A stretch of DNA of 63,078 nucleotides, counting the filler. It is 13 parts of 13 records of this genome, joined end to end, with 100 filler letters (N's around TTAATTAATTAA, not from the genome) between each part and the next. Parts side by side here need not be neighbours in the genome. Positions count along the whole stretch, not along the records: positions 36,608 to 45,016 come from SRR15195285_2320; 12 more parts are not named here. One strand, written 5' to 3'. Under the pieces are notes generated by a model. The model was not told where the DNA came from and ran no database searches. It saw only the letters and a program-made list of their open reading frames with translations. The position numbers and the translations under genes were made by a program. Within the stretch, counting starts at the first letter, position 1. Every line of letters starts with the position of its first letter. Positions 17,906 to 59,196 of this stretch are shown one piece after another.

Positions 17906-18415
17906 GACTCATCGCCGCGCGGTGAGTCGCCGGAGTCGTGAGATCGCACACGCGCGCAGACGTGAGTCCGCGTCCGTCACGACGACGCGAGCGCGAGGCC
18001 CACCCGTACAGTACAGCTGGAGACTTGCGTTGTCCTCCTCAGCATAGTTCGCTGGATGCGCACCGAGCTAGTGCAGACGCGGCACAATCGTGAGCTCTCT
18101 ACCTCAAGCTGCTGTAGGGTGGTCCTAGGAGATAGTCGGAGAGGTGTGGGTGGGCGGTCCGTGAGTGCTGCTGCTGCTGGTTCCACGCGCGCCCACTGCG
18201 TTCCATCGTCGGGAAGGTCGAGACGGAGTCTATGGCTCATATCTAGCCGCGGAGATCTAGCACCGTGTGGGTGCATGGTGTGGTCTGTGAGTGCTGCTGC
18301 TGGCTGGGCATGTAGCTGCTAGAGGAGTCGGGCTGGGACGGTTGCGCTCAAACTCCTGGTGGTGACGCTGGACCACGTGCGCGCGGAGGCGGGGTGCCAG
18401 GTGCGTGAGGTCAGC

Positions 18416-21400
18416 ATGGACGAAGCGAGGAAGGTGGCGAGAGCTGGTGGGGTGGACGCGGAGATGCGAGGCAATATCCCCGTCCTGATGACCAAGAACT
18501 TCCTGCTCAAGAAGCGAATGTGGCAGAAGCTTGTGTTCGGCTGCTTCCCGGCGATGCTCTTCATGGAGCTGATCGTTCCACCAGGGCTGCTCATCGGCCT
18601 AACCTGCGTGAAGATGGAGGCCCCACTGTACATGAAGACCACGGGATACGGTGGCTGGCCAGTGTGCAACGAAAACGAGCTGCATCCGTGCACGGAGACC
18701 ACGCCGATAGAATGCCGGGCAGGCGATGTGGGACAGGTTGATGTCGCCAGCGCAGCGAGTCGTGCAGGTGTGGCCAACGCCGCGACAGCGGCAGCTGGGG
18801 AGGTCAACACGATCAGCACCTGCGAGTCGAACTCGAAGTATGTGTTCCAGCCGGACCCTTTCTTCTATACGATGGTGGCCCTGCACTGGGCGAGGGATGG
18901 TGGTCCAAAGCTAGCGCTAACCGCGGACAAGCCAGGAGATATAGAGAAAGTGCGGCGCTTTCAACAGTGGGTGTCTCAGCATTGGTACCCCGAGCAGTAC
19001 ATGTCGGAGATTCCGTGCGCCGACCTAGAGCTGAGAGACAAACAAACAGAATGGGAGATCCGTGACACGCAGGAACAGCTTGCGGAGTCAGGTGCCTACG
19101 TCATGTGCGCAGAGGAAGAGCTGGAGAGGTATCCAACGAAGTATGCCACGTGCTGGTGTGATGGGCGAGTTAAAATGGGTACCGCAGGAGATCCTGCGCG
19201 GGATAAGGGTGAGTATTGGACCCCCTGGCGCAACAACACAGGTTACATAGAGTGTTCAGTAGATGTGTTCGGCAATCCAAACCCGGACCGGGACCAGTAC
19301 GACGACGATGAGTACTACGTGTGTCTGTGCGACTCATCGCCAGAGCCCGTGGAGCGCGACCAGGGAGAGTGGACAAATGAAGGCTGTACAATGTCGAAGT
19401 GCCGAGACCACGGCAACGACTGCTGCGCACCGCAGGCGTTCAGAGAAGTGGCTCGCTGTGCTGATGGATACCTGCCACACTGGGTGGCGCCCTGTGCTGG
19501 AATGGCAGGTGACGGTCGGTACACCTGCTGTCCTCCGCCCGCCGGGGCGGGTGGGCCGGGCGCTTGCCATTTTCAGGATGACAGATCGGGGACAATCAGC
19601 AGCTTTTCGCAAGTAACGAAGGTCTACGAGAGTCGCGCTACCATGGAGAGGCACATGAAATCGCCAGAGTACGGTGCTGGCAACCCATGGGGGTACGACA
19701 TTCTTGGCGCCGTCTCTTTCTCAAAGATTCCAGGCGACGGAAGCCCTGGTACTGCTGGCGACTGGGAGTACAGCCTGATGCTCAACGACTCGGCAATCTG
19801 GGGGGTCTATTTTGAACGCAACGTCAGTCGGGGATGGAAGCAGTACGAGGATCTCGATGAGCATTCCATTCGGTACGATCAGTCGAGGTTCCTCACGCTG
19901 CAAGCCCTCATCGACCGGTACATCATTCACCAGCGCAACAACGACCCCAGTTTTGATGTCGAACGGGGGCTGGACGCAATGTTTGCCACAAATAATCGCG
20001 TTGGTAAAAGAAGCTGGCCGGACGAAAACGGCTGGAACAGGGACGCGGTCAACCAGACCTACCTGATGGAACCTCAGATGTGGATGCCACAGTACGTACA
20101 GTTCGCTGCGTTGCCGATCATGTAAGCGAAGCCCCCTTTGCTTTGCTTCGCTTCTATCTGCTGCTCTGCCTTCGCCGTGTGCACCGGCGCTAACGCTTTC
20201 ACCTTACTCGGGGTTGCGCAGGGGCTTTCGGATCACACTGTTCTACTACTACTGTGACTTTGCGCTTGCGCTTCTTTTCATCTTAATATACCTGGACAAC
20301 ATGTACACTACAGTGACTACGTTCATCGCTGAGAAGGAGACGCGAATGCGCGAGGTGCTACGCATCCAGGGCGTCAGCACGTTTGAGTTCATCACATCAT
20401 GGTTTGTTTCGTATGTGGCCCAGTTTGCAGCACTGAACTTAATTATTGCCTGCGTCTGCGTATTTCCGATGATCGGTACCACTGGTTTTGGTGGAATATT
20501 TTCAGCATCGTCCTTGCTGGCAGTGTGGTGGTTCCTTTTCCTGTACAGCATGTCGTTTGTGGCAAAAGGCTTCGCGATCTCTTGCTTCTTCGGCAAGGCA
20601 CGAATAGGCGGAATGATTAGCTTAATCATCTACCTGTCGGGCTGGTTTATACAGGCTGCGCTCAAGTACCAACCGAGCAGTGCAACTAGTAAATCGCTGC
20701 TCGCCTTTGCATCTCCTGTCGGCGCCTTCGCATTTGGTGTTGAGCTGCTCAGCAAGCTCGAAGAAGCTGGAGCAGGGGCAACATGGAAGAACTTTGATTT
20801 CCGGCCGGACGGCGCAACTGGGCTGAGCTTTGGCGAAGTACTGTGGCTGATGTCTGGTCAGTTTGTGTTCTACTGCGTACTAGGCTGGTATTTGGACCAA
20901 GTCGTCCCGTCACAGTGGGGAATCAAGGAGAAACCTCTTTTCTTTTTAACACGCGAATACTGGACCAGGGCCAATTCAGCAGCTCCCGTAGCTGCGATTG
21001 CAGAACCTAACGAGTTAGAGTCACACGACAACCCTGTTGCGCCAGGCATGCGTATCGATGAGGATACGGTAGAGATGCAGCAGATGCGCAGGGATCACAA
21101 ATGCATCAACATTCAGAAATTGAGGAAGACGTTCCCCACGCCGGACGGCGAGTTTGTCGCGGTCGACGGCCTATCGATGACCATGTACGAGGGCCAGATA
21201 TTTTCGCTGCTTGGCCACAACGGGGCTGGGAAGACCACAACTATCTCGATGCTCACTGGTATGCTACCTCCAACCACAGGCGATGCTTACGTGTATGACA
21301 AGAGCATTGTTGAGGACATGGCCGGTGTGCGCAAAGATATTGGGTTCTGTCCACAGCATGATGTGCTCTATCCGTCTTTAACAGTACATGAGCACCTTTC

Positions 21401-24400
21401 AATGTTTGCATCGCTCAAGGGAGTTCCGGAAAGTGACGTTCAGGCTGTGGTGATGTCCAAGATTGCTGACGTCGGTCTTACAGAGAAAGTTCATTATCAA
21501 TCGGGTGGGTTGTCAGGTGGGCAGAAGCGGAAGCTGTCCTTGGCGATGGCGCTGATCGGAGACTGTAAGGCGATATTCCTCGACGAGCCGACAAGTGGTA
21601 GGATCTATTCATTTTTCTGAGAGCTCCTTCTGCTTGTCAGACTGCTCAGAATTAGTACGCATTATCTAGAGGTTTAGTATCTGACAACTGACAAATACAT
21701 GTTGCTGCTCTTCAGGTATGGACCCGTACAGCCGACGCTCGACTTGGAACATGCTGCAAGCTGCGCGAGCGGGTAGAGTCATGGTCTTGACCACCCACTT
21801 CATGGATGAGGCAGATATTTTGGGCGATCGTATCGGGATTATGGCAAAGGGTCAGCTGCGTTGCTGTGGGTCTTCACTGTTTTTGAAGGGCCAGTACGGT
21901 GGTGGATACAACCTGGCATTCGCAAAAACTTCAACTGACCCTGCACAATCTCTTCAAGATGCAATCACGAGCCATGTCTCCGGTGCCAAAGTAATAAGCA
22001 ACATCGGAACTGAGCTAAAGTGTCAGCTGCCTTTGGCTGAGATTGGCAAATTCCCAGCGCTGTTTGCCGAACTCGACGGTAACCAGCAGCATTATGGCAT
22101 TGAATCGTATGGGATTGGTTTAACAAACATGGAAGAAGTTTTTCTCCGCGTAGCAGAGGAAGGTGAGGTTGAGCAGGCCGAACTGTCAAACGAGGCCGAA
22201 GAAGGCGACCTGGGGGAATACAAACCGGCTTGTCAGAGCTGTACCCAGTCCGTACTGAACAGCAGTACATTTAGAGATGGAGATCCACTTTGGTACCACT
22301 CATGCTCATCATTTGTCAAACATCTGGTGGCAATGTACATCAAACGTGCACGCTATGGATTTCGGGACCGGCGCGCTCAAATTTGCAACATCATCACGCC
22401 GATTTTGCTATTGTGGTTCGGATTCTTCCTCATGTACGATCTTCTAGGAATCTTGATCGAAAGGGACTTGCCGGAGGTGACGTTAGACTTAAACATTGTC
22501 AAGGATGAGCTCCATCTGGACTCGCTGTCAGTTCCATACAACTCCACGTTCCCGCAAGCGAGGCCAGCTGTTTCGAAATTTCCTGGGGGTGTCGTTGCAC
22601 ATGCGGAGGACATTGAGTTGGGTCCTGAGGAGAGAGAGCTGTATGGGGTGGTGTACAACAACGGGAAGCCGCTGGGCGAAGATAGCTGCACGATGGAGCC
22701 GAGGCAGATGCTTTCTTTTTCCGATCAGTTGTTACAGGAAGGTATGGGTAGCGAAGGAAGGGATGTTGTCTACGGTGCGGTCATGTTTCCAGTAGAAGTT
22801 GCAGACTGTTGTGCAGACTACGAGATCCCTTGCGCGCAGGTGCAGCAGATCATGGTCACAGGCCTTGGGCTTGATTGCCAGACTGAGATACATCAACTCG
22901 CATCGCCGGATGGATTTGGATTCATGCGAGATCACATAGGTGGTCGCGGTCCCGTCATTGCCAACACGCTGGGATTGGAGGAAACTGCTGAAATGGGTAC
23001 GACAGAACAGCAGCTTGATGATATCTTGAGGCAGGGGGCCGACGCTGCCGCACTGTTCATCAACGTTGCCGGCTTGCTGGGTGTTAGTGAGCTGTCGACT
23101 GCCTCCTTGTCTGACTTCTGTCCAGGGCAGTGTGCTGGTGAAGAGTTTGGTCACTGGAATACTCGTGGCACTCTGGCTGTGATGATTCGAAATCGTTATC
23201 GCGTCTGTGATTTTGCAAAGCGCGCAATGGACAATGGGAATGTTCCGATCAGAACGTTGATGAACGTGCTGCAAACCACGGGCATGATACAATCATCAGA
23301 TGTTGGCAGCACAGCAATTCTGGACTGTGATACCACACCCGTGCAGCTGTCAGAGCAAGTAGCGCCTCTTGTAATCGCACTGGCTTCTTGCGCGCAGAGC
23401 TTCGTCTGCAGTAGGGCGCTTGATGCCGCGATGTCTCTGTACTCTGATGACATTGGACCTGATGACCTGTTCATGCTAATTGGTGGGCTCAATCAGACAG
23501 CAGAAGTGATGAGATCGCTTGGATTCGGTTCTCTAACCCTCGCGCAGGCCTGCCCAGACACTTGTGGCTACTGCAACAGGACAGTCAGCGCCTCCTCACC
23601 AAAAGACGTGAGGGCTGCCGAACCTGGACCAGCATCATTACGCCCAACCCGGCCATCATCCCTGGCACCCTCTCTTCCACCATGTGTTGACGATGAGAGC
23701 GTATGTGGTGGGGTTCGGAATGGATTATGTGAGGAACGCCACATCGACGCACCTTGCGAGTCAACGCATTCGTGCAATTGTCCATCCGGGTCAGACGGTA
23801 CAGATTGTGCAAGTTTACGCGCCGACTGCTTGGGTAGCCCTGGAACTGGCCGCCGGCTGCAGCGCTCTAGCGTACCAACACCACCGCCGGTAACGAAGCT
23901 AACGATTCTGTTCAACAGCTCGTTCACACACTCGACTCCTGTATTTTTTTCCCTGGGCAGCAATGTGCTGAAGAATCAGATTGGAAGCGGTGGATCAATA
24001 GTTGTACGCGGCACCATGTGTCCGTTCACTGACTGGCAAAAGTACAATTCTGATGCATCTGCTTTTATCGGCATCTTCCAGTCGCTGGTGGTCTGCCTCT
24101 TCATCATCATTGCGTTCTCGTTCATTCCAGGTGCGCTGGTGGAGTTCTCCGTTCGTGAGCGCGAGCACAGCCGCAATGCCAAGCATCAGCAATATGTCAG
24201 CGGATGCAGCATTCCTGCCTACTGGTTTGGAGCATACCTGTGGGACTTGACGATGATCGCCATGCCAATCGGGGCGACCCTGTTTCTTTCCTCGTGGTTT
24301 GCGGTGGGCCCACTTGTGCGTGGTGACGCTCCGTGGTGCTGTTTCGTGCTCTTCCTCGGGTATGGACTCGCCATCTGCCCCTTCACATATTTGATGGGCA

Positions 24401-25762
24401 ACCTATTCGCCTCGAGCGCTAAGGCACAGATCTACACAATTCTGTTCAATCTGATGACGGGCATTGTAATGATGGTGGCCTCATACATCCTTGGCCAGTT
24501 TTACAAGACGCACGAGATCAACGAGGTCTTGATGTGGTTCTACCGGGTCTTTCCAGGATTTTGTCTTGGGCATGGACTGTTGCAAGTATTCATCAATAAC
24601 AACGAGGTAACAGCTGCCATGACCGCGGGTATGTTTGGCGGGGGCGATACGGAAGACCCAACCATGTTCGATTGGGACATTGCGGGCAAAGATCTCTTGT
24701 ATCTGTACATGTCAGCCGTCTTCTATACACTATGTGTGCTAATGCATGATTTTTTGGCATCGTATCCAGCGCTGGACAAGAAGCTGCACGAAATGCTGCC
24801 AGGCAGCAGTGATCAGATCGAAGCGGTGCAGGAGGCGGCGTCGCAAATAGAGTTTGATGAAGATGTCAATGCAGAGGCAGAGCGCGTCGCATCAGGTCGC
24901 GCGGACGGTGATGTTGTCAAGTTGCACAACCTACAGAAGGTCTATGCTGGTGGAAAAATGGCAGTCAAGAATATCTCTGTGGGGATTCCGTTGGGAGAAT
25001 GCTTCGGTCTCCTCGGAATAAATGGAGCCGGAAAAACATCGACACTCAAGATCCTTAGTGGCGATCAGCTTCCGACCGCAGGTACAGCCCACATAGGTGG
25101 AATGAACGTTTTGGAAAACCAGCGTGCTGTGCGTACTCTCATCGGTTACTGCCCACAGTTTGACGCCCTGTTGGACCTGCTCACCGTCCGTGAGCACCTG
25201 GAGCTCTTTTCGCGGATCAAAAATGTCCCAGAGGTGGAGATAAGTAAATCAGTTGACTCCGCATTGAGCCGCATGGACCTGATGCGCTACTCCAACAAGC
25301 TGGCTGGTGCGCTAAGTGGTGGCAACAAGCGGAAGTTGTGCGTAGCGATGGCGATCATGGGAAAGCCCAAGGTGGTTTTCTTGGATGAACCATCGACAGG
25401 CGTTGATCCAGTAGCCAGAAGGTTCATGTGGGACATCATCTCGGAGATCTGCGCGGAGGATCGTGAAACAACAGTGATCCTTACAACGCACAACATGGTG
25501 AGATTCCCTGCAGGGCTTATCTCTACCGTGTGCTTAGTGCAGTTGGTTCTGATTGCTGTCCCATTGTCTCACCCTGCTTGTGCTACATCAGGAGGAATGC
25601 GAGGCGCTCTGCACGCGACTCGGCATCATGGTAGGAGGGTACATGCGCTGCCTTGGCTCTATCACCCATTTGCGGGATCGTTTTGGCCAGGGCTACCAGC
25701 TTGAGATCAAGCTCCGGTGCGCGCATGCTGTTGCTGCGGCGGCGGCGGCTGCTGCTGCTGCT
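18416..25762 (+). CDS. Full-length-type ABCA subfamily transporter (3' truncated)
   Basis: N-terminal '[12 protein letters not shown]'; '[14 protein letters not shown]'. NBD1 [32 protein letters not shown]2 [39 protein letters not shown]. Introns 20122-20221, 21598-21715 and 25498-25591 restore the frame. Confidence 0.95.
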
Positions 25763-25862
25763 NNNNNNNNNNNNNNNNNNNNNNNNNNNNNNNNNNNNNN
25801 NNNNNNTTAATTAATTAANNNNNNNNNNNNNNNNNNNNNNNNNNNNNNNNNNNNNNNNNNNN
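25763..25862. other. Artificial contig-joining spacer
   Basis: N44-TTAATTAATTAA-N44, preceded by a (GCG/GCT)n triplet run. Confidence 0.99.
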
Positions 25863-29701: not shown

Positions 29702-29801
29702 NNNNNNNNNNNNNNNNNNNNNNNNNNNNNNNNNNNNNNNNNNNNTTAATTAATTAANNNNNNNNNNNNNNNNNNNNNNNNNNNNNNNNNNNNNNNNNNN
29801 N
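29702..29801. other. Artificial contig-joining spacer
   Basis: N44-TTAATTAATTAA-N44. Confidence 0.99.
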
Positions 29802-29803
29802 AG

Positions 29804-32800
29804 GCGTGGGCTGCGACAACGAGCGATGGGTCTACGCCATTGCACGACCTTTGCAAGAATGGAGCTACGCGGCCAGAGACCCTCGTTACGGCAGCGGCAG
29901 CCGCAAGTGCACTATCATTGCTGCGGATAATTTGTGAGGAGCCGCGTGTGACGTCTGACGCTCTAGATGTCGCGGTGAAGGCTGCGCGCGTACCCTTGAT
30001 CTTGCAGTCAGAGAAGGGCGCCGAGCCTGCGCTCGCTGGGCTGCTCAGGCGATTTGCCCCGGGCGAGCTGCCAGCGCTGGGCAAGGCGCCGCCTCACCGC
30101 TGGTTGTCACACGAGCGCCTGTGGGCGCGAACAGAAGAGAACACCGGCCACGGCTTGGAGCACAATCCGCTCACCGTTGCGACGAACCTCAAGAAGGGCA
30201 AATGGGTCGATGTGTTGGTCGATGAAATTCTGGTGGAGCACGACCTCGTGTACCGAGTGCCCGATCTTCATGCCAACCTGAAGCAACTGTTTGATGCCGG
30301 GTATGGTGACGCTGCAACTCGACTGCTGAGCCAAGGAGGCGTCCGTGTGGTGCCTCACCCAGTCGGAGTGTTGCCGTCAATCGACCCTGAGGATGCCATG
30401 GAGTTCGGTTGCGCTAACGATGCATGCAGCTGTGACCATGATACTGTGGAGCCGTTCAATGCCGAGACGCATTCGCATGGGGCTAGGGTTGTCGTGCGCG
30501 CGGACGCCGAGATCTATTGTTTCCAAACGTGGCTTAGTCAGTCATACTTCAAGCCCGGGCAATCCCATTGGCACACGTGTGAAACACGCAGCACCATTGG
30601 GGCCGAGCAGGTGCGTGGGCAGCTTGTCTCCGCTGCTTGGGATGACTACAAGCGTCTGCGTCATGTGCACGGGTCGATTGATGCGAAACCAGGCTGTGCC
30701 ACAGTTGATATTCCAACATTCGGGGTGAGCGGTGTGAAGTATGATGACTTGGAGGTGGAAGGCACCGCCGCAGCGTGGGCCGATCTCGTGCCCGACAAAG
30801 CAACAACTCCCCAGACTTGCCAACTGTACCCGCAGAAACGCGCCGTAAAGGCTGTGGCTGAGCCGGTCATGCTCGCAGTTGAGAACGCATCTTCGAAGCT
30901 GCTCCCACTCCTTCTGAAGCAAAGCGAGCGCCATGCAGACATCTTCAGCACAGAGATCGTGTGCAATCTGATCGATTTCAAGTGGAACAAGTACGGCCGC
31001 CGCCTCTTCTTTCAAGAGACGGGACTTCACTTGGCTCTTGTGTTGACGTGGCAGTGGGTGACCGTGCACGACGCGCAGACTAAATTGATCATGTTCGCCG
31101 ACTATTCTTTCGTCCAGGGCCTGACTGCCGTGGTGTTGTGTGCGGCACTGAGCATCGGAGCACGTCGTCTGACACGCTGGATGTCTAACAGCTGCGCAAC
31201 GGTGCTGGGCGCTGTGGCTGCCTTTGCATGCTTCCTCATTGGGTCGTATGATAGTAGTTGGTCTCCGGTCGTGTTGCTTGCGGTGCTAGTTGCACTGACC
31301 GCGCGAGCTGTGGCGAACGAGATTCGTCAGCTAGCACACGCAGTGCCAAGCCCCGCAGACTTCGACAGCGACTATCCGGGAGCAAACGTGGAATACCTTT
31401 CTGCAGAGCCAGATTCCGCACACTCGTCACAAGACATTGCAGATTCAACTACTGACCAGCACACTGAACAAGACGGCGATTCCACAGTCGGCGGTCAGCA
31501 CAAGCTAGCCGAACATGTACTAGGACAAGAGTTTGAGCGGCTGTTGACAGCTGCCACTGAGACGGAAGCCTCTACAGAGCAACGAAAGATCACACATCGA
31601 CGGCAACTGCAGCGCTATCTGGTCGGGCTGCTTGTCTACGGTCACGATCCCTGGAATTTGCTCGACGTCGCGAGTCTTGCGGTGGTCATGCTATCGATCT
31701 TGCGGTGGGTTTGCCACTCAAATGTCGCAACGGACAGTCATTTGGCAGCTGTCGGCACGTTTTTGCTGTGGATTCGAGTGATCGAATACTTGAATGGGCT
31801 CGAAATGACGGCCGCATACGTGCGCATGACGACGGCAGTAATCGCCGATATGATGCCGTTCATGCTGATTCTGCTGCTACTGATTGTGGGCAATGCTTTC
31901 GTGCTGCTGTTGCTATACCCACGAAGCCTTGAGCTTGACGAGAATGATTCTGGTTCTGGCTGGCATTTGGATAAGGAGGACGAAGAAATGATAGATGAAG
32001 CGTTTGGTGACTTTGGTGCTGCTCTGTTCACGGTGCGTTGCATCACTGCTGCATACTGCACTTTAGCACTGGGCAACATCCAATGTACCTAGTCAATGTA
32101 CCTAGTCTGACCATTGCTAAAGTGAGCTGGAACTTGTGAACTCAACTCGGTCGGCACAGTCCATCAACATGTTCTTCACGGGATCGGACACCGAGCTGCT
32201 AGACAGGGCACTGTCACCACTACTCGCGACATGGCACTACTTCTTCGTCGTCGTGATGACGCCGCTCATCATGCTCAACTTGCTGATTGCACTTATGGGG
32301 GGAAGCTACGAGCGTATCGAGCAAAACACCAAAAACGCGATGCGGCGCCAGAAAGCAGAGCTGTTGGTGTCGCTGGAGGTGCTCATGAGCGACGAGGACA
32401 AGCGCAACGACCAGTACTTTCCACGCTGGCTCTTTTGGTATCGCCCGGCCGAGCGCCAGGCGGAGGGCACGACATACGAGAACGGCGTGATTAACGGCGT
32501 CAAGCGAATGCTAGATCAGCAGACACAAGAGCAGAGCAAGGAGGCAATTGACGTTCGTGCCCAAGTACAGGAACAACTATCGCAGATGGGTGAGAAGATG
32601 GAGCAAGATTTAGCGCAGAGGGACACGAAGATGGAGCAAGATCTAGCGCAGATAAGCTCGAAGGTGTGTCAAATCGAGCAAGATCTAGCGCAGAGGGACA
32701 CCAAGATGGAGCAAGAACTAGCCCAACTGAATGCCAACGTCAAGCAGATTGAAAAATCGAATGCAGCGATGCTACAAGAGTTGTCCAGCAGGTTCGAAGA

Positions 32801-32971: not shown

Positions 32972-32999
32972 AGTGACACCGGGCATAAGGGCCTTATGC
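32972..32999. repeat. Palindromic dispersed element, copy 2 (truncated by contig end)
   Basis: agtgacaccgggcataagg-g-ccttatgc. Confidence 0.85.
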
Positions 33000-33099
33000 N
33001 NNNNNNNNNNNNNNNNNNNNNNNNNNNNNNNNNNNNNNNNNNNTTAATTAATTAANNNNNNNNNNNNNNNNNNNNNNNNNNNNNNNNNNNNNNNNNNNN
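33000..33099. other. Artificial contig-joining spacer
   Basis: N44-TTAATTAATTAA-N44. Confidence 0.99.
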
Positions 33100-36507: not shown

Positions 36508-36607
36508 NNNNNNNNNNNNNNNNNNNNNNNNNNNNNNNNNNNNNNNNNNNNTTAATTAATTAANNNNNNNNNNNNNNNNNNNNNNNNNNNNNNNNNNNNN
36601 NNNNNNN
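36508..36607. other. Artificial contig-joining spacer
   Basis: N44-TTAATTAATTAA-N44. Confidence 0.99.
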
Positions 36608-39600
36608 GAGCCTGAGCCTGAGCCTGAGCCTGAATCAGCTCCGCCTAGGAGGTCGTTTGAGCTAACCCGGGATTCCGAATTGAACACTGAAGGGACGGCA
36701 GCAGCTACCTCCACGGGCAGCAGGGATGCCGGCGCGGGGTCGACGAACAAACGTCCGAGTAAGACACCTAATGATCGTAGTGCTGACGACGATGAAGAAG
36801 ACGAGGATGATGAGTTGCGAGTCTTGACTTTCAAGCTTGGGCTGCTGTGTAGCGGTGTTGGAGCCTGGCTTGCTGTGCTTGGCTGTCGGTGCATTTGGAC
36901 TGTACCTGAGGACACTCTAGGTATGCTCTCGACCAACGATACTGCGTTCTCGGACCGCTTCAGCGGCCTGTCTGGGCATATGGATGACCTCTCCGTGGCA
37001 GTTTCTGAACGAGTCGCGGGCGGGTGTCCACGCAACCGCGGCGTCATTCTCACGGTCGTCGGCATGTCGTCACTATTCATTGGCTTGCTTAGCCTGTTTA
37101 GTAAATCTGCACTGTCAGGCCTGCAAGTCTGGCAAAGCTTTGCTGGCGTTACCTTTTCCTTCGGAATGATTCTAATGATTGTGGGCAATGCCTGCACGGA
37201 GGATGGGACTGATTGGAGCTCCAACTGGACCAGCCTGGGAACCAATTTTGATCAGCCCACTCGCAGTGGCTGTGATGGTTTTGATGCCGCCATCATGCTG
37301 CTAGTAGGTGGAGCTTTGTTGACACTATCGTTGGTGCCAACTACCGTTGTTCATCTCGACCGACGGTATGCGCCTATCGTCCGGCAGGGGCAGTTTCTTG
37401 TCGGCGCGTTTCTATTTTCTGTAGGCTTCATTGTCGCCCAGTTCGGTCTTGCATGCGCGAGAAACGAACTGTGGACAGTTGAAGACTGCCCTCGCCGCGG
37501 ACATTGGAACACATCTGTCAAACTTCTTGTCTGGGGCTGGATGTCAGTTGCGATCGGCGCTTTCGTCATGAGTACGTGTATGTTTCCGTCTTTTTACGTA
37601 AAGATTTTGGGTCGATATGAAGACGTCATCAAGCTAACATCATGGCAGCCGAGATTTTCCATGTATGCTGGCTCTTGTGCTTTGGTACTCGGCATCCTCT
37701 TCGCATCGTTCGGTGGGGCATGTCTGGACAATACGCTGTTTTCCGATTGCCACGCGAACCATCTCAGTTCAGGTGTGGTCTTTGTATCTTCGGGTCCATC
37801 AATGTTTGTATTCGGGCTGTTCACTGTGGTAATGGCAATGGACTGGCGATGGACTGAACTCGATGGTGACACCAAGGCAGACAATGAGCCCTCGGCAGCC
37901 CACAAGGAGCCGGAGCCGGAGCCGGGGTTGGAGCCTGGGGAGCCGGGCGGAGGGCCTGTCCTCAACCCGATGAGAACTGCGTCGGCACTTTCCACGGAGG
38001 CAGACCATCAGTCTCCCACACGCGCGGCCGGTCTGCAGTGGGTGCCTGAATCTTCGAAATTGAGATGGCGATTAGGCTTTCTGCTTGGTCTAATTGGAGC
38101 CGTGTTAAATATTGTCGGCATCTCGTGCATAAAGCATTCGCTGTTCTTTTCAACGTCTGGAATCAACCACTCACTGAACGGCACGTTTTTATCCGATGCT
38201 GACATTCCAGCTGAGCTCGCTGAGCACTTGGAATTTGACGAAGGATGCGAGCGGTACAAAGGAGTGATCATGGTTGTCGTTGGTTCGTCGTCGCTGTTTG
38301 TTGGCATTTTATTTTACCTGTGTGAAACAGCGTTCAAAATCGCAGATGTGTTCCTGTACTTCACCAGGGATGCTTTTATTTTTGGCTTCACGCTAATCCT
38401 GGTCGGTTCAGTCTGCATGGATACGGCGGAGTGCAAACGTTGCCCACGTGTGGAACCAGCTGGATTCAACTGGAGCGACGGTGTCGTCATGGTATTTGTC
38501 GGCCTGTGGCTGGCAGTGGCTATGTCAGGCATTCCATACATATGGTACATGCTGTGGAAGTACTACCCGGAGACAGTGAGACAGCGTGCCTTTCAAATTG
38601 GCGCTGGCATATGGCTGGTTGGAATCGTCCTGTTCGTTCCTGGCGTGCTCTGCCAATCCGACAACTTGTACGGAGTAGATGGGTGTCAGACCAAAGGGCG
38701 GTTGTGGAACCACAAATGGAGCCACTCAGTGAAGCTGCTCTTCTGTGGTTTCATGTGCATGCTGATCGGTACGTTCATGATGAGCACCAAAATGTTTCCG
38801 GGGTTCTATGAGAAGCTTGTGGCGCGAATCAAGCAACTGAAGACGCAGATTCCAATCATTCTGGGTCTATTCTGCCTTGCAGCTGGCGTAATCATCGCGT
38901 CAGTTGGTGGTGCCTGCCTTGACAACACGCTCGTCTTCGTTGACGACTGCTTTGGCGACCATTTGGCCGCGGGCACAACGCTTGTCACTGTTGGGCCGGC
39001 GATGTTTGCGTTCGGAATGCTATTTGTCATGGTAGCATGCGACTGGCAATACGACTTCGACGTGCTGCCGTTGTTGTCATCATCAGCGACTGCAGACGGT
39101 GAAAAATCCCGACTTATTGATGGGCCGACCATCATCAAACCAACTTCGTCTGGTATAGAGCCCGAGCCTGAACCCGAGCCTGAGCAAGAGCAACTCAATC
39201 CATATGCAAAACAGCAACTAGTCAAAGGAACGGAGAAATCGGACCAGTCCAAGGGCAAAACTCAGAAGATTACAGCGCAGAAAAACGTGCAGCCAGCACA
39301 AAAAGGTGGTCTAGCTCAGTACTTGGCACCTTCGTTTTTCGCTGATTTTTCCGGTGGCATTAGTCTTCGGCAGAGCCCTCGCTTTGTGCTGGGAGCAGGT
39401 CTAATTTTCTTGGGCGTCATGCTGTCGTATTTTGGTGGCTCTTGCATCAACCAGTCGCAGCTTGCTCCAGAGTGCCAGAGACACAAGGGAATTATCATGG
39501 TAACAGATGGTGCTTCGGCTCTGTACGTTGGGATTGTGTTTGCTGGATCTGCGTTTTCGCGCACCCACGTGCAGCTGCTATCAGTGATCGCCGCCAACAC

Positions 39601-42600
39601 CTTCTGTTTTGGGTTCACACTGTGGATCGTTGGTGCATTGTGCATGGGCAACGCTTTCGAAACGCACGATGGACCGGGTGGCTGCAGTCTTGATGACGGC
39701 ATCTTAATGGTTCTCGTCGGTTTCCCACTGGTGTTTTTTGCTGTTTTTGTCGCTGTCGGCTGCGCTGTCCCAAGTTTTTATGGTGATTTTGTCTCACGAC
39801 TGTTCTCGCTACGACATAGGTGGCAGACGAAGGGTGGGTTGGCGTTTATCTTTCTGGGGATTCTCTGTGTTTGCGGTGGATTTGTGATGGGACTACAGGA
39901 AGGTCACGCATACCTCGCGATGGGCTTTTCGTTTGTAGTCACTGGTGCGTGTGTGTGGGTAATCGTAGCAGACTGGAATTGGGAAGGTGAGAACGGCAGG
40001 GAGATCCCGGACGAGGTACGCTACAATGATCTGGAGATACCAGAGTGGTCGGCACGCCCAGGAGCGCCATCATTCTTTACTGGTTGGAATCAGAAAGTAA
40101 CCATGTTTCACCGCCCACGGTTCTGCTTTGGTTTAGTGGTGATTTTCCTCGGCCTGATATTGGCTGGGGGCGGCGGAAAGTGCATCAACAACACCCTTCC
40201 AGGGATTGCTGAGTGCCCACGGTTTCACGGCATAGTTTATGTCACAGTTGGGACAGTGGCACTTTTCATGGGCATTTTGACAACGATGTCAACGTTCGCG
40301 AATGACATGTCACACCCGACAGCACTCGTGTTTCTGGAGTTCGTGTTGTTCGGGGCTGTGCTGTCAGGGATCGGGTTGGCCTGCTTCACGGACAACCTGT
40401 GGGGCGTCGAGCGTGATGCGCCTGCTGGATGCGATCGGCACGACGGCGCAGTAATGACGTTCACTGGGGGAGGTCTTGTGCTGTTCGTGGTTGTATCTGT
40501 TGGCCTGATGTTCGCGCAGGCAAACTTCCCCGATATTGTGATGCAGAAAAAGTGGTTCTTGGGTTTCACCATCTGGACAGTGGGGACCGTGCTGTCTTCC
40601 TTCGGTTTCGCTTGCGCGACCAACAATCTGTATGGTTACGAAGAATGCGACCGTAAGCGCAAATGGAGTGCTGCCGCGCAGCTGCTTGCGAGTGGATGGT
40701 CTGCCTTCGCGATCGGTGCCATCTCTATGAGTGTAGCGATCTTCCCGGCGTTCTACGAGCGAATTTATGATCGTGTGATGGCTGTCCGGAAACACTGTGG
40801 GCTTTGGTTTGGCGCGATTCTGTTCAACATAGGTTGGGTGGTTGCAGGGATCGGAGGCGCTTGTCTAGACGACACGATGGTCGGAATGAGAGACTGTCAA
40901 GATCTTGGGAAGCTGCTGCTGGTCGTTGGACCGATGCTTTGGGCAATTGGATTATGTATGGTCGTGCTGACCTGCGACTGGGAGTGGCCAGAGGACATTG
41001 CAGCTTTGAATCCGGAACACTTTGGCGAGTGTTCGGTGGACAAGGACTTAGACAGCAAGAAGTCTGGAAGCGAACAAGGATCTGATGCCCCGGAACCGCC
41101 ACCTCGACCTGCTCCGCCGGTTCCACCACGCCCTGGAGGTGCACCATCCAGGCCCGCGACTGACGACATTGAGGGAGTCCATATGGGAGGCGACATGAAC
41201 CCTCTCGCTAGGTCTACCTCTAGCGATATATTGCCTGTTCAGTCTGGGAGCGTGCAGCCTGCCATTAATAAGACTGCACCGCTACGCAAGGACACATGCG
41301 AGCTTGGAGTAGAGGTGCTTATGCTAGAAGAACCGAAAGTCCGTGGGATTGTGCTAAAAAAGGCACGCAAACACGTACAGGTCAACCTTTCCAGGAGTGG
41401 TGGACCGAGGGCAACGTTTATTCGTTACGAGAAGTTGAGGCTCGCGCCGTCCAATGGTGAACTCAAGCGTCGTGACAGGGGGCGGTTCTGGAAGAGGCAC
41501 ACCTTGTGGTTAGGGCTGGCGTTTTTGGCCAGCGCTTACACGATGCTCCGGCTCGGTGTTGACTGCTTGCTCTCCGTCGGCTGGATGGCAGATGTGTCCA
41601 ACGGCGACTGTCCGTTTCATCGTGGAGTGCTACTTTCGTGCAATGGCCTGACATCGCTGTATGTTGGGGTAATTCTTTTCGCACTGACGTTTGTTCGCAA
41701 GCCACGCAAGGTCTGGCTGGTGATTCTGCTGGATACCGTTTTGATTGGTTTGTTTATTATCGCAATCGGCATAGGCTGCTCAATGAACAAAGCTCCATTC
41801 GTACCACTAATCTGCGAGCATAGAAAGGAGGGCATTCTCATCATCGTCGGCGGATCCGCTGTCGCTGTGGTGGCACTGTTTCCGGCCGTGACTTTGAGCT
41901 GCCAGGCCTTCGTCCCCAAGGCTCCGCAGTACGGCACGGCGGTGAAGTACTTCTGGTTTGGCAGCATCGTTTCAATGCTCTCTTTCATCGCCGCGGTGTT
42001 CGGACAGATGTGTGAGGCCAATGCCCTCAAAGTGATCGGCCTCAGATCTTGCCCTCGCACAGAGACGCTCGGCCCGTGGAGCCCGGCGATGAAACTGATG
42101 TACTGGGGAGCGCTTGCGTTCGTGTTGTCGATAGGCCTATTTATTTTCTCATTCTTCGAGCGTGCCGTTGATGCATCTCGTGACTTTGCCAAGGCGAACA
42201 AGGTCTTGATGCTAGGTTTGGTAATGCTGCTGGCTGCCACTGTTTGGGGCATACTCGGAGTGCACTGCGCTGCCGACTACCTTCTAGGAGTACCGGACTG
42301 CCCGTCGGTGTACGATACAGATGGAATGCTCATATTTGGCACCACTGGCAGCCTGTCCGGGTTGCTGGTCATCATAGTTGGCTGGTACAAGCGAAAAGGC
42401 CTCGACAAGGATCTTTTCACTTCGATCATCTGGGTGCTGACATTTATCCTGGCGTTGGTTGGGGGGCTTGGCACCTTGATAGGGGCCGCCTGCTTGAACG
42501 AAACGAAGATCTGGTTGTCAGGCAGCTGCAAGGACGGGTGGGGTACTGTAGGCTTCCCGGTTGGAAGAAACATTCTGTTGCTGGCTATCTTGATGCTGCT

Positions 42601-44389
42601 GTGCAACACATACTTCCATCGTCGCGACACTTTCCGCCTTACTCCGCAGATAAGCGAGATCTTGAACTCTACAAATACACCAGGCATGATTTGGTACGGC
42701 CTAGCGATCGTGCTCGGTGCATTCTCGTTTGCCGTGGGTGCTCCCTGTCTGGCAGGCAAGCTCGTGCATTATCCTGACTGTCCAGAGGGTGTCGGTGCAA
42801 TGATGACTGCAGCGGGAGCCTGCCTCTTCTGCTCGAGCCTCGCCATATTCTTCTTGCGCACGGTTGACGCAAGGAGTCGAGAGCGCATTGAAAAACGTGC
42901 AACAGACCCGAATGCAGAGTGGAAGCGCTACTGTGCAAATCCAGACTGCATTCCACGCAACGGGTTGACAGTTTGGCAGAAGCCTCAGGTAGGCGTGGGG
43001 CGGCATAAAGGGAAACTGCCGCTGGGGGAGGAGGTGGCAGGCTGTTTGGTCGGCCTGTCAGCCAAATCTACAACAAAGTGGTTGCGCATCGTGTATCCGG
43101 TCGGGTCTGCTGAGGCCGGCTGGGTGCTAGCCATAGTCGGTGAAACGCAGTATGTGCTACCAGTGAAGGCCTCAGATGGTCAGGACGAGATCGTTGCAAT
43201 GCCCGATGCGCTCGACACAGAGGCGGCACTACGCCAGGCCGAGGCCTTTCGGCAGGAGCAGCTGGAAAAGAAGGGTTTATTGGAGCAGCAGCTTCACACG
43301 ATTCGTGATTTGTTGACACGCGAAGGTGGTGAGAGTATTGTTGAAATGCGTCGAAAACTCGAGAGATTCCAGTCTGCACAGAGTGCCGTGCACTCGGTTG
43401 CACCTGCGGCAGGGCAGAACAACGATGCGCTGCAGCAGAAACTCGACGCACTGATACGGCAGCACGCAGAGGCAGAAGCCGAGGCGGCACGAATGCGCAC
43501 TTCTGTTGCTGAGGTCACGCGCGCGCTCAGACAAGAATCCAATGCTCGCAATGAGCTTTACCAGCGGGCTGCTGTTCTGCAGGCCCGTAAGTCCGCCTCC
43601 GAGGCCACACTGCAACAGATGGATGCTGAGGTCGACCGCGCGCGGGAAGATGTCTCGTCTAAGTTCCTCGACCAGGCCGTGGCAGAGGGTTGGATTCGCT
43701 CGGGTGATCAGGCCAGAAGCGCAGAGCTGATCGCGGAGAGTAGGTTGATGCTGAAGCTAGGACAGGAGAATGCCCGGCTGGCGGCGGCAGCGGAGCGTGA
43801 ACGGAACCGGCATGCTGAGACGCAAGCTGGCATTGAGTCCGCGCGACAGCTGATGCTGCATGGCGGGCGGCTGGAGGATCAGAATGCACAACTACAGCAG
43901 GCGTTAGAGGCGGCCCGAGAAGAGGAGCGCCAGCAAGTGCAGCAGATGGAGTGGCTACGGCTCAGCGCGGCCGACGACAGCGAAGATGATGTCAGCGATG
44001 ACAGCGAAGGAAGTGATGAGGACCTACAGCACCATCACCATCGCCACGACCACTATCGTCGTGGCATCACGTCTGGCCTTGACAGCAGCGACAGCGATGA
44101 TGACGATGGTAGCAGTGACGGCAGCGGCAGCGACGGCGAAAGTTACTCGTCTGGATCATCACTGGACGATCTCATTTTGCCTCCGCCCCCACCGCCACCT
44201 CGCCCCGGCGTCGTGGGCAGTGCTCCCGGCGAAGTGTCCCCTGTGACACGAGAGGCGCTCGATGACCTGGAGCAGCTGGTCGTCGGCCCGGGGGAAGCAG
44301 CTGCAGCCCCGGTCGTGTCGCCAGGCACAAGGAGAGTGGAGCAAGAGCTGGCTGCGCTAGACGATATCACGATCGCGACGGCTGATTGA
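36608..44389 (+). CDS. Giant polytopic membrane protein (about 40 TM, five internal repeat blocks) with SH3-like, coiled-coil and acidic C-terminal regions; 5' truncated
   Basis: Uninterrupted 7.8-kb ORF open from the contig edge (EPEPEPEPES...). Repeated hydrophobic hairpins with paired Cys; blocks end in DW(R/Q/N/E)(W/Y). Confidence 0.9.
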   Translation, partial: EPEPEPEPESAPPRRSFELTRDSELNTEGTAAATSTGSRDAGAGSTNKRPSKTPNDRSADDDEEDEDDELRVLTFKLGLLCSGVGAWLAVLGCRCIWTVPEDTLGMLSTNDTAFSDRFSGLSGHMDDLSVAVSERVAGGCPRNRGVILTVVGMSSLFIGLLSLFSKSALSGLQVWQSFAGVTFSFGMILMIVGNACTEDGTDWSSNWTSLGTNFDQPTRSGCDGFDAAIMLLVGGALLTLSLVPTTVVHLDRRYAPIVRQGQFLVGAFLFSVGFIVAQFGLACARNELWTVEDCPRRGHWNTSVKLLVWGWMSVAIGAFVMSTCMFPSFYVKILGRYEDVIKLTSWQPRFSMYAGSCALVLGILFASFGGACLDNTLFSDCHANHLSSGVVFVSSGPSMFVFGLFTVVMAMDWRWTELDGDTKADNEPSAAHKEPEPEPGLEPGEPGGGPVLNPMRTASALSTEADHQSPTRAAGLQWVPESSKLRWRLGFLLGLIGAVLNIVGISCIKHSLFFSTSGINHSLNGTFLSDADIPAELAEHLEFDEGCERYKGVIMVVVGSSSLFVGILFYLCETAFKIADVFLYFTRDAFIFGFTLILVGSVCMDTAECKRCPRVEPAGFNWSDGVVMVFVGLWLAVAMSGIPYIWYMLWKYYPETVRQRAFQIGAGIWLVGIVLFVPGVLCQSDNLYGVDGCQTKGRLWNHKWSHSVKLLFCGFMCMLIGTFMMSTKMFPGFYEKLVARIKQLKTQIPIILGLFCLAAGVIIASVGGACLDNTLVFVDDCFGDHLAAGTTLVTVGPAMFAFGMLFVMVACDWQYDFDVLPLLSSSATADGEKSRLIDGPTIIKPTSSGIEPEPEPEPEQEQLNPYAKQQLVKGTEKSDQSKGKTQKITAQKNVQPAQKGGLAQYLAPSFFADFSGGISLRQSPRFVLGAGLIFLGVMLSYFGGSCINQSQLAPECQRHKGIIMVTDGASALYVGIVFAGSAFSRTHVQLLSVIAANTFCFGFTLWIVGALCMGNAFETHDGPGGCSLDDGILMVLVGFPLVFFAVFVAVGCAVPSFYGDFVSRLFSLRHRWQTKGGLAFIFLGILCVCGGFVMGLQEGHAYLAMGFSFVVTGACVWVIVADWNWEGENGREIPDEVRYNDLEIPEWSARPGAPSFFTGWNQKVTMFHRPRFCFGLVVIFLGLILAGGGGKCINNTLPGIAECPRFHGIVYVTVGTVALFMGILTTMSTFANDMSHPTALVFLEFVLFGAVLSGIGLACFTDNLWGVERDAPAGCDRHDGAVMTFTGGGLVLFVVVSVGLMFAQANFPDIVMQKKWFLGFTIWTVGTVLSSFGFACATNNLYGYEECDRKRKWSAAAQLLASGWSAFAIGAISMSVAIFPAFYERIYDRVMAVRKHCGLWFGAILFNIGWVVAGIGGACLDDTMVGMRDCQDLGKLLLVVGPMLWAIGLCMVVLTCDWEWPEDIAALNPEHFGECSVDKDLDSKKSGSEQGSDAPEPPPRPAPPVPPRPGGAPSRPATDDIEGVHMGGDMNPLARSTSSDILPVQSGSVQPAINKTAPLRKDTCELGVEVLMLEEPKVRGIVLKKARKHVQVNLSRSGGPRATFIRYEKLRLAPSNGELKRRDRGRFWKRHTLWLGLAFLASAYTMLRLGVDCLLSVGWMADVSNGDCPFHRGVLLSCNGLTSLYVGVILFALTFVRKPRKVWLVILLDTVLIGLFIIAIGIGCSMNKAPFVPLICEHRKEGILIIVGGSAVAVVALFPAVTLSCQAFVPKAPQYGTAVKYFWFGSIVSMLSFIAAVFGQMCEANALKVIGLRSCPRTETLGPWSPAMKLMYWGALAFVLSIGLFIFSFFERAVDASRDFAKANKVLMLGLVMLLAATVWGILGVHCAADYLLGVPDCPSVYDTDGMLIFGTTGSLSGLLVIIVGWYKRKGLDKDLFTSIIWVLTFILALVGGLGTLIGAACLNETKIWLSGSCKDGWGTVGFPVGRNILLLAILMLLCNTYFHRRDTFRLTPQISEILNSTNTPGMIWYGLAIVLGAFSFAVGAPCLAGKLVHYPDCPEGVGAMMTAAGACLFCSSLAIFFLRTVDARSRERIEKRATDPNAEWKRYCANPDCIPRNGLTVWQKPQVGVGRHKGKLPLGEEVAGCLVGLSAKSTTKWLRIVYPVGSAEAGWVLAIVGETQYVLPVKASDGQDEIVAMPDALDTEAALRQAEAFRQEQLEKKGLLEQQLHTIRDLLTREGGESIVEMRRKLERFQSAQSAVHSVAPAAGQNNDALQQKLDALIRQHAEAEAEAARMRTSVAEVTRALRQESNARNELYQRAAVLQARKSASEATLQQMDAEVDRAREDVSSKFLDQAVAEGWIRSGDQARSAELIAESRLMLKLGQENARLAAAAERERNRHAETQAGIESARQLMLHGGRLEDQNAQLQQALEAAREEERQQVQQMEWLRLSAADDSEDDVSDDSEGSDEDLQHHHHRHDHYRRGITSGLDSSDSDDDDGSSDGSGSDGESYSSGSSLDDLILPPPPPPPRPGVVGSAPGEVSPVTREALDDLEQLVVGPGEAAAAPVVSPGTRRVEQELAALDDITIATAD

Positions 44390-44686
44390 GTGGCGAAATG
44401 CTTGTATTGGCTCCCTAAACATCTTTTGCAACGTTCGCCAAACCATTGGCTCAAACTTTCGTTTCTCGTGGCTCGCGCTAGTGCGACTATTATAGACCCC
44501 AGGGGTGGGGCGGTAACCCGAGGCGCTTTCGCCTGCATTTCATCTTCATTTGCAATTCCGATTAGATATCGGGGGTCCACCGTCCACGGGACCAGCGATG
44601 GGGTTGCAGTAGGGGAGTGACGTGCACGAGTGAGATCTCAGGTTAGTGAGTGCATGCATTCCGGCGTGCGGCGCGTGGGTGATGTT

Positions 44687-44703
44687 CACACCGGGCATAA
44701 GGC
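44687..44703. repeat. Half copy of the palindromic dispersed element
   Basis: cacaccgggcataaggc matches the left arm at 32976-32990. Confidence 0.6.
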
Positions 44704-45016
44704 TGTCTGGCCGTCATCGGCACTTGGTGCACACAGTGGTAGTCAATTGACCCACCACGCGGTGGAACTAAGGAGGAACAGACTTCCTTTTGCAAATCGA
44801 TGGATTGCAGAGGAGCCAAATTTACAGAATTGTGTTTCTTCCCTTTTTTTTTAAAAAGTACAGCTGTATCGGTCCGGCGCTTGTATATTCTATATTCATA
44901 CCGGGTATGGGACGAGGCTCTGGGCCACAGTGTCGAGTGTGACTGTGATGAGTGTGCCCAGGTACCGGTACATGTAGGTTGCATTCGCTTGGACCATGGA
45001 GAACTCACTGAGAAAT

Positions 45017-45116
45017 NNNNNNNNNNNNNNNNNNNNNNNNNNNNNNNNNNNNNNNNNNNNTTAATTAATTAANNNNNNNNNNNNNNNNNNNNNNNNNNNN
45101 NNNNNNNNNNNNNNNN
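45017..45116. other. Artificial contig-joining spacer
   Basis: N44-TTAATTAATTAA-N44. Confidence 0.99.
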
Positions 45117-51391: not shown

Positions 51392-51491
51392 NNNNNNNNN
51401 NNNNNNNNNNNNNNNNNNNNNNNNNNNNNNNNNNNTTAATTAATTAANNNNNNNNNNNNNNNNNNNNNNNNNNNNNNNNNNNNNNNNNNNN
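51392..51491. other. Artificial contig-joining spacer
   Basis: N44-TTAATTAATTAA-N44. Confidence 0.99.
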
Positions 51492-54972: not shown

Positions 54973-55072
54973 NNNNNNNNNNNNNNNNNNNNNNNNNNNN
55001 NNNNNNNNNNNNNNNNTTAATTAATTAANNNNNNNNNNNNNNNNNNNNNNNNNNNNNNNNNNNNNNNNNNNN
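54973..55072. other. Artificial contig-joining spacer
   Basis: N44-TTAATTAATTAA-N44. Confidence 0.99.
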
Positions 55073-59096: not shown

Positions 59097-59196
59097 NNNN
59101 NNNNNNNNNNNNNNNNNNNNNNNNNNNNNNNNNNNNNNNNTTAATTAATTAANNNNNNNNNNNNNNNNNNNNNNNNNNNNNNNNNNNNNNNNNNNN
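59097..59196. other. Artificial contig-joining spacer
   Basis: N44-TTAATTAATTAA-N44. Confidence 0.99.

Follow-up and report, generated by a model that had tools for sequence, protein, structure and literature searches.

The locus studied here raises the question of what kind of protein is encoded by a single uninterrupted open reading frame (ORF) of 7.78 kb, located at positions 36608–44389 of a 63-kb stretch of DNA (the window). The window consists of 13 contigs of 3.2–8.4 kb each, separated by 12 identical N44-TTAATTAATTAA-N44 spacers, and the gene in question sits on contig 9 (36608–45016; + strand, as are all of its features given below). The original prediction, made from the sequence alone, had described 36608–42870 as an intronless gene for a membrane protein of about 40 transmembrane (TM) helices, built from repeated Cys-loop hairpins and possibly acting as a channel, sensor or scaffold. 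The protein translated from 36608–44389 is referred to as P0001, and P0002 and other proteins numbered in this way are its relatives from a public protein collection. The analysis indicates that P0001 is part of a giant hairpin-repeat membrane protein from Picozoa, and our confidence in this architecture and lineage is high. The function proposed for it, a rigid intramembrane scaffold, is put forward more tentatively.

In frame +1 no stop codon interrupts the sequence between 36608, the base that follows a spacer, and the stop at 44387–44389; the ORF comprises 2593 codons and the stop. The preceding spacer (36508–36607, assigned to no strand) is non-biological and the DNA 5′ of it belongs to an unrelated contig; the sequence before 36508 is therefore uninformative on this gene. 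The contig opens inside a (GAGCCT)n repeat coding for (Glu-Pro)n (EP), which occupies 36608–36633 and marks an assembly break point; similar EP linkers recur at about 37906–37939 and 39158–39191. Since the contig begins within this repeat and the first Met codon of the ORF is codon 106, beyond the first TM helix, the 5′ end of the gene must have been cut off by the assembly break. P0002, a protein of 4264 amino acids (aa) that is 79% identical to P0001 by BLASTP, gives a measure of the loss. In tblastn its residues 1680–4264 match 36647–44386 in a single high-scoring segment pair (HSP) of 2616 aa with 75.5% identity and, because the match starts at residue 1680, about 1680 N-terminal residues are missing from the ORF. 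The missing part is encoded by no other contig of the window, as judged by tblastn with P0002. The contig appears to carry the 3′ 60% of a gene with a predicted full length of about 4100–4300 aa and about 64–68 TM helices. The full-length forms are P0002 itself, P0034 and P0035 (4123 and 4124 aa) and P0004 (4313 aa), and hydropathy analysis gives 67 peaks for P0002, 64 for P0034 and 68 for P0004. The predicted absence of introns thus agrees with the uninterrupted frame over the part present, but the gene is 5′-truncated at the contig join. Similarly, about 40 TM helices is a correct estimate for this part, which has 42 TM peaks, but the part is only a fragment of a protein whose full-length orthologue has about 67. 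The predicted end at 42870 turned out to be the end of the membrane region; the ORF runs 1.5 kb further and encodes a cytosolic C-terminal region.

Could the ORF be a product of assembly or binning, either chimeric or read through a non-coding repeat? Such an artefact is suggested by the make-up of the window, a series of short contigs, and by the EP-repeat regions, which draw false joints from other sequences. It is contradicted by the independent 4264-aa protein, which aligns in one HSP of 2616 aa, by the existence of further full-length relatives (P0034, P0035 and P0004) and by the pieces assembled from sequencing run X1, which are collinear with the contig, with 0–3 differences and no gaps. 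We give the artefact next to no credence, and the gene is real. Parts of the contig are present in 19 of the 23 marine or seawater runs listed, which come from 13 studies; among these marine runs, 12 contain half or more of the sampled words and six are RNA libraries. The contig pieces listed from one DNA run and three RNA runs are all collinear, with 0–3 differences each and no gaps. In run X1 the eight longest pieces listed are collinear and there is coverage in 30 of 30 depth bins, with no single piece spanning the whole stretch. The collinear and gap-free contigs from RNA libraries therefore fit an expressed and unspliced gene over the part present. A joint from 37925 to 39158 was considered as an intron and rejected as a repeat artefact, because it connects two EP repeats and foreign letters lie between its sides; reads are cut at EP repeats and false joints form between them. 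Depth peaks at 37732–38012, 39137–39417 and 44757–45016 were dismissed as low-complexity pile-ups from other organisms.

The membrane region was analysed by Kyte–Doolittle hydropathy with a 19-residue window, and the blocks were grouped by hand. P0001 contains 42 TM peaks grouped as 8+8+6+8+12, a total also obtained by automatic merging and identical to the count originally made by eye. The five blocks were recovered on recomputation at the places predicted for them. Block 1 (36818–37846; aa 71–413) and block 2 (38060–39049; aa 485–814) each have eight TM helices arranged as four Cys-loop hairpins; block 3 (39368–39985; aa 921–1126) has six helices in three hairpins, block 4 (40106–40984; aa 1167–1459), which was used for the structure model, eight helices in four hairpins, and block 5 (41495–42871; aa 1630–2088) 12 helices in six hairpins. 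The homology claimed among the blocks is borne out by block-to-block BLASTP, with E values down to 5e-52. This lowest value belongs to blocks 1 and 2, which are 34% identical over 362 aa; block 4 matches block 1 with E = 6e-41 and block 2 with E = 2e-41, and block 3 and the first half of block 5 match the other blocks more weakly (E = 1e-7 to 5e-14). The motifs MFPxFY, GGACLD(N/D)T and DWx(W/Y) are present in P0001 as had been claimed. The secondary BLAST matches show an offset of about 72 residues, which identifies a single hairpin as the basic repeat.

All 21 hairpins of P0001 align to one pattern, G-x6-G-x6-G-x2-C ... C ... G-x6-G, and at least two loop Cys residues are found in 20 of them, in agreement with the predicted Cys-loop hairpins; the third hairpin of block 3 is the only one that lacks a loop Cys pair. 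In an alignment of 17 hairpins (A2), the sole invariant columns are G, C, C and G. A hidden Markov model (HMM) built from A2 detects 21 units in P0001, 29 in P0002, 31 in P0034, 31 in P0004 and 26 in P0005, and none in any of 18 controls (15 shuffled and three reversed sequences). P0001 carries the tandem hairpin pattern in 8-TM blocks that defines the picozoan hairpin-repeat family. The AlphaFold2 model of block 4, calculated from a 17-row alignment, has a mean predicted local distance difference test score (pLDDT) of 83 and a predicted template modelling score (pTM) of 0.64, and consists of eight long helices with a short helix over the FPAFY motif. In this model the first Cys of each hairpin is located at the C-terminal end of the odd helix, and the second at, or 1–2 residues ahead of, the start of the even helix. 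The TM segments of P0001 contain 14.3% Gly, and only five charged residues are present in the 42 TM cores. Most hairpin loops are 14–29 aa long; the first loops of blocks 1 and 2 reach 51 and 44 aa, respectively, and bear N-x-S/T sites, and the last hairpin does not differ in kind from the others and has a loop of 14 aa. The conserved features are structural, namely heptad-spaced Gly residues on both helices, the Cys pair at the outer ends and the interfacial Trp in DWxW. As read from these alignments, the building unit would be a hairpin of about 65–75 aa with two Gly-rich TM helices, heptad-spaced Gly residues and Cys residues that end helix 1 and open helix 2. Four differentiated hairpins make one 8-TM block, and disordered Pro/Glu-rich linkers join the blocks.

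The original prediction recognized no family with this architecture, and neither did any of the resources consulted here. P0001 matches no Pfam-A family at E ≤ 1, Piezo included, which upholds the stated lack of sequence similarity to Piezo; P0002 has no Pfam match at E ≤ 0.1, and P0016, P0020, P0021 and P0012 match no Pfam family. For P0004 and P0005 only EF-hand and C2 domains exceed the Pfam cut-offs. Below the cut-offs, P0005 has the rows DUF2304 (E = 0.029) and PsbL (E = 0.048), and P0004 and P0006 have a few others. When 17 block sequences were compared with Pfam at E ≤ 10, no weak family occurred in more than two of the 17, all being far below the cut-off, and profile checks of single blocks revealed no full-block match to a characterized transporter or channel family. 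NCBIfam gave nothing real, and searches of PDB sequence profiles returned one match (ND5, E = 0.27) for the hairpin profile and none for the block profile. The model of block 4 is a good one, and it has no fold match either: the best values against the PDB were E = 0.32 with TMq 0.23 in Foldseek, and Z = 8.8 with a root-mean-square deviation (rmsd) of 8.4 in VIA-align, where the other rows were single-hairpin matches. All of these matches fall within the noise range that VIA-align states for helical models. Literature searches on Picozoa and transmembrane proteins, and on giant protist membrane proteins with C2 or EF-hand domains, brought up no such protein in titles and the starts of abstracts. 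The hairpin-repeat proteins thus seem to constitute a family and a fold without a described relative.

These comparisons also bear on the idea that each 8-TM block is a transport domain and the protein a transporter or lipid-handling protein (a carrier, or of the scramblase or flippase kind). Many transporters with 6–12 TM helices arose by internal duplication, which would suit a chain of repeated blocks, and a weak structural row for SLC19A1 was obtained (Z = 6.3, rmsd 7.1, 200 aligned). However, Pfam gives no transporter family for P0001 or its relatives, the weak families found for at most two of the 17 blocks lie far below the cut-off, and the fold matches are all below the noise level for helical bundles. 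The conserved residues are moreover Gly and Cys, not polar or charged ones, and a single chain with five to nine transport domains in tandem would be without precedent. A transporter is accordingly considered very improbable.

Piezo has 38 TM helices per chain, organized as nine 4-TM repeat units and a pore module, and resembles the picozoan protein in being a very large chain of tandem, small, non-polar helical units with cytosolic linkers. The picozoan unit, however, is a 2-TM Cys-clasped hairpin, whereas that of Piezo is a 4-TM bundle, and the picozoan orthologue is predicted to have about 67 TM helices per chain, about 1.7 times the 38 of Piezo. At its C terminus Piezo has a pore module, in which a large extracellular cap is placed between the last two TM helices; the C terminus of P0001 has neither cap nor pore module, its last hairpin loop being 14 aa long. 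One rival explanation is a mechanosensitive or otherwise gated channel of the Piezo kind, in which the repeat array would be a membrane-curving lever arm gating a pore, and the Ca2+-binding paralogues would modulate it. Such a channel would account for the very large, repeat-built chain and for the paralogues with EF-hand and C2 domains, and VIA-align splits the 8-TM block into halves (residues 5–146 and 155–301), which loosely recalls 4-TM units. A fast sensor might also be useful for the abrupt, stereotyped motility that a passage on Picozoa describes (PMC3608682), although this link is speculative. On the other side stand the absence of Piezo or any other Pfam family at E ≤ 1 and of any Piezo chain among the best 50 rows of each of the three block 4 fold searches, the lack of a distinct C-terminal pore module or large extracellular cap, the five charged residues in 42 TM cores and an internal repeat shift of one hairpin, not of a 4-TM unit. 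We regard a channel as unlikely.

Helical hairpins with a Cys pair in the outer loop also liken the picozoan unit to the claudin/PMP22/Cav-gamma proteins and the tetraspanins; claudins and tetraspanins have an outer loop with a conserved Cys pair. In VIA-align, block 4 matched the Cav1.1 gamma subunit (3jbr_E; Z = 7.9, rmsd 2.3, 61 aligned) over the length of one hairpin and Tspan15 (8esv_B; Z = 7.5, rmsd 8.0, 96 aligned) also over hairpin length, both within noise. The claudin/PMP22 and tetraspanin families gave no Pfam match for P0001 (E ≤ 1) or for the 17 block sequences (E ≤ 10). The outer loops of claudins and tetraspanins form a beta-sheet or a large EC2 domain; the picozoan loops, mostly 14–29 aa, have neither, and the unit is repeated about 30 times per chain.

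The distribution of the family was assessed with phmmer, block 2 being the query in an exhaustive search of 1.84 billion representative proteins. At E ≤ 1e-3, 21 proteins match, 11 of them at E ≤ 1e-10, and most are fragments. By eye, P0019 is an unrelated tandem repeat, so the real family accounts for at most 20 of the 21; P0022 looks chimeric, its N terminus being argininosuccinate-lyase-like. The search for longer proteins with the hairpin profile retrieved only P0022 and P0060, an orthologue represented by a C-terminal fragment, and that with the block profile found none, which is weak evidence. Metagenome contigs searched with block 2 and with a five-sequence alignment of the last hairpin yielded pattern matches and no relative, and the ESM Atlas had no usable match to block 2. 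All seven taxon-labelled cluster members are Picozoa (Picomonas judraskeda and Picozoa sp. COSAG01, COSAG02, COSAG06 and SAG31), the others being unlabelled. As far as named records show, the family appears so far to be restricted to Picozoa. Because all labelled relatives are Picozoa, the source organism of the contig is most likely a picozoan, a relative of the organism that P0002 comes from and distinct from it.

The relatives themselves show some diversity. A second subfamily (P0004 and P0005), about 26% identical, has an EF-hand pair and two C2 domains inserted in its inter-block linkers. P0005 and P0013, which are consecutive gene calls on one contig according to their labels, look like one gene split in two. 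P0016 (3233 aa; E = 7e-8; no taxon label) has 43 hydropathy peaks and only seven recognizable Cys hairpins, together with a long Lys/Glu-rich C-terminal region and EP repeats, and could represent a divergent third branch of the family.

The orientation of the hairpins was deduced from the composition of their loops. Counted with the helix ends, the hairpin loops of P0001 comprise 711 residues and are net acidic and rich in Cys (43 Cys, 43 Lys and Arg, 70 Asp and Glu); the loops between hairpins, with 442 residues, are rich in Lys and Arg, the corresponding numbers being seven, 46 and 22. The Cys and Lys/Arg biases recur in P0002, P0034, P0004 and P0005, in which loops were assigned automatically: hairpin loops with at least two Cys residues number 25 of 25, 25 of 26, 27 of 31 and 22 of 24, in that order, and Fisher p values for the Lys/Arg bias range from 0.0054 to 1e-5, compared with 0.026 in P0001. 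Under the positive-inside rule, loops rich in Lys and Arg are cytosolic, and so the inter-hairpin loops are placed in the cytosol. In addition, the EF-hand pair and the two tandem C2 domains of P0004 and P0005, all above Pfam cut-offs, lie within inter-block linkers, and EF-hand and C2 domains are typically cytosolic modules. Both the charge bias and these paralogue domains indicate a luminal or extracellular position for the Cys loops, where disulfides can form. It is thus likely, from loop composition and domain content, that both termini lie in the cytosol together with all linkers, and that every Cys loop is luminal or extracellular. The Cys pair of each hairpin probably forms a disulfide clasp. 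The idea that the loops are disulfide-stapled on the outer face is in this way indirectly supported as far as their non-cytosolic position is concerned; the disulfides themselves are only inferred. Three outcomes had been named beforehand as counting against the original prediction, namely a family match, far fewer TM helices and cytosolic Cys loops; what was found is no family, 42 TM peaks and Cys loops that point away from the cytosol.

Outward-facing loops would also suit a cell-surface receptor or adhesion protein, the disulfide-bonded loops of which would attach to ligands outside the cell, for example food colloids or the surfaces of prey. The Cys loops are probably directed outwards, the first loops of blocks 1 and 2 are longer (51 and 44 aa) and carry N-x-S/T sites, and Picozoa feed on colloids smaller than 150 nm, according to a passage in PMC3608682. 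Most loops, however, are only 14–29 aa and expose little protein, and conservation is strongest in the membrane and at the helix ends, not in the loops. This explanation is given very little weight.

The cytosolic parts of the protein differ from the membrane blocks. By composition, the inter-block linkers of P0001 are rich in Pro, Glu, Gly and Ser. The longest, of about 170 aa (40985–41494), connects blocks 4 and 5 and includes a PxxP-like run rich in proline, PPRPAPPVPPRP, after which comes a segment of about 50 aa (CELGVEVL...RYEKLRLAP) that is conserved, as judged by eye, in P0002 and P0034 and has no assigned fold. It is conceivable that the PxxP-like run is a ligand of an SH3-like segment of the same protein. 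This segment, of about 84 aa (42914–43165; aa 2103–2186), comes after the last TM helix and is conserved in P0002, P0034, P0060, P0004, P0006 and P0013, i.e. in both subfamilies. It resembles SH3b/SH3_3 domains in a motif recognized by eye, G-x-V-W ... G-K-L-x-x-G-E-x-V ... W-L-R-I ... G-W-V-L, but differs from them in that aa 2100–2190 match no Pfam family, SH3_3 included, at E ≤ 10. Its AlphaFold model is poor (pLDDT 51) and all-beta with five strands; the best Foldseek rows are mostly SH3 or SH3b domains (ALE-1, lysostaphin and Sla1) with non-significant E values of 0.41–2, and SH3_3-bearing clusters of the ESM Atlas score 0.93–0.94, which is a lead only. An SH3-like fold is probable for this segment, but not established. 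The next 260 residues (43208–43987; aa 2201–2460) have a high content of Ala, Glu, Leu, Arg and Gln and, judging from this composition, probably form a coiled coil; the only match, in aa 2204–2447, is to SMC_prok_A of NCBIfam and is non-significant (E = 0.23). The protein ends in an acidic, low-complexity tail rich in Asp, Ser, Gly and Pro (43988–44386) with a His run and a poly-Pro stretch.

What might such a protein do? We tentatively favour a rigid scaffold within the membrane, attached to the cell cortex, over a channel. In this mechanism about 30 clasped and tightly packed hairpins would form a long, rigid, non-polar array within the membrane, which would stiffen or shape a membrane patch. 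The cytosolic SH3-like segment, the coiled coil and the acidic tail would tie the array to cortical or cytoskeletal partners, and the EF-hand/C2 paralogues would add control by Ca2+. A scaffold is favoured because the conserved features are structural, the TM helices are Gly-rich and nearly free of charge, no distinct pore or cap is present and the cytosolic end is adaptor-like; with five charged residues in 42 TM cores, nothing pore-like was found in P0001. A functional analogy is provided by the GAPM proteins of the apicomplexan inner-membrane-complex cisternae, which have six TM helices and are thought to form rigid intramembrane arrays linking the cisternae to the cortical skeleton. No homology to the GAPM proteins is claimed, and their six TM helices contrast with the approximately 67 TM peaks predicted for the picozoan orthologue; the likeness is that Picozoa also have a large plate-like cisterna. 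This vacuolar cisterna lies pressed against the plasma membrane, and a deep cleft and a bulk-flow feeding apparatus are described alongside it in a passage of PMC3608682. That the cisterna, cleft and feeding apparatus could need a membrane-shaping device is speculation. For the explanation as a whole, a Picozoa-restricted giant hairpin-repeat protein that functions as a scaffold, we would put the chances at a little under even.

Several points weigh against this explanation. The lack of polar TM residues is shared by the blades of Piezo, and a channel could form elsewhere, for example in the missing N-terminal part or by oligomerization. Disulfides, topology and scaffold role have each been inferred. 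With regard to topology, N-x-S/T sequons are biased to hairpin over inter-hairpin loops in P0001 (nine versus one) and not in P0004 (one versus none) or P0005 (none versus one), so this weak bias was not relied on. Some EF-hand proteins are luminal, and the linker argument therefore rests mainly on C2; P0001 itself has no EF-hand or C2 domain in the Pfam scan. The SH3-like assignment depends on a model of low quality (pLDDT 51) and on matches that are non-significant, the best having E = 0.41, and the contigs from RNA libraries are no strict proof of transcription.

In the window as a whole, spacers 1–6 lie at 5827–5926, 9118–9217, 13430–13529, 17806–17905, 25763–25862 and 29702–29801, and spacers 7–12 at 33000–33099, 36508–36607, 45017–45116, 51392–51491, 54973–55072 and 59097–59196; as the stretch is made of joined contigs, genes on opposite sides of a spacer are unlinked. 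The other contigs carry eukaryotic genes, for a PWWP/KH protein, an ABCA-type transporter, an EGF-repeat protein, a SAM-domain kinase, GH31 and GH67. Contig 4 has an ORF (13852–15801, +) for a protein of 649 aa with several EF-hands, and contig 7 has an ORF (29840–32092, +) with an Ion_trans domain (E = 9e-8). On contig 5 (+), the ORFs 18359–20125, 20214–21620 and 21718–25704 occupy 18359–25704 with about 90 nucleotides between them and look like one ABCA-type transporter (ABC2_membrane_3 and ABC_tran, each twice). These gaps of about 90 nucleotides suggest that short introns probably occur in the source genome, which makes the uninterrupted 7.8-kb ORF noteworthy. Several contigs end in simple repeats (GACCGC, GCT/GGC and GGCTCC), from which it is suggested that the assembly breaks at low-complexity coding repeats. 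A near-palindromic element, GTGACAC(A/C)GGGCATAAGG(G)CCTTATGCCC, ends contigs 2 (9088–9117) and 7 (32973–32999). Its 18-base core is found three times in the window with at most two mismatches, compared with zero expected, and the element may be a dispersed hairpin-forming repeat. The third copy of the core (44685–44702), in which only the first half is common, is located in the 3′ flank of the giant-protein gene (44390–45016, +), which extends to the contig end and has no long ORF and no Rfam match. The whole window has no match in Rfam.

Picozoa, a phylum of uncultured marine protists, are known almost exclusively through single-cell genomes and a single short-lived culture. If the predictions hold, both the fold and the architecture would be new among membrane proteins, and the number of TM passes per chain would exceed that of every structurally described protein. 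This comparison is with structurally described proteins and rests on a passage of one review (PMC9256749), which ranks Piezo first in TM passes among the membrane proteins found so far. A passage of PMC3608682 describes the cell biology of Picozoa as different from that of every other eukaryote. It is a rather unlikely, though conceivable, extension that chains of about 64–68 TM helices, made from an undescribed disulfide-clasped hairpin fold and accompanied by Ca2+-coupled paralogues, are a new membrane-shaping or force-sensing device underlying the cleft, the plate-like vacuolar cisterna, the bulk-flow feeding or the jump-drag-skedaddle behaviour of these cells. The presence of the gene in metatranscriptome libraries of several marine studies suggests that it is used in nature. 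The compact 8-TM module, with its putative disulfide clasps, is one that membrane-protein structural biology could express and solve, and the protein would offer a molecular handle on picozoan biology, as an antibody target for localization.

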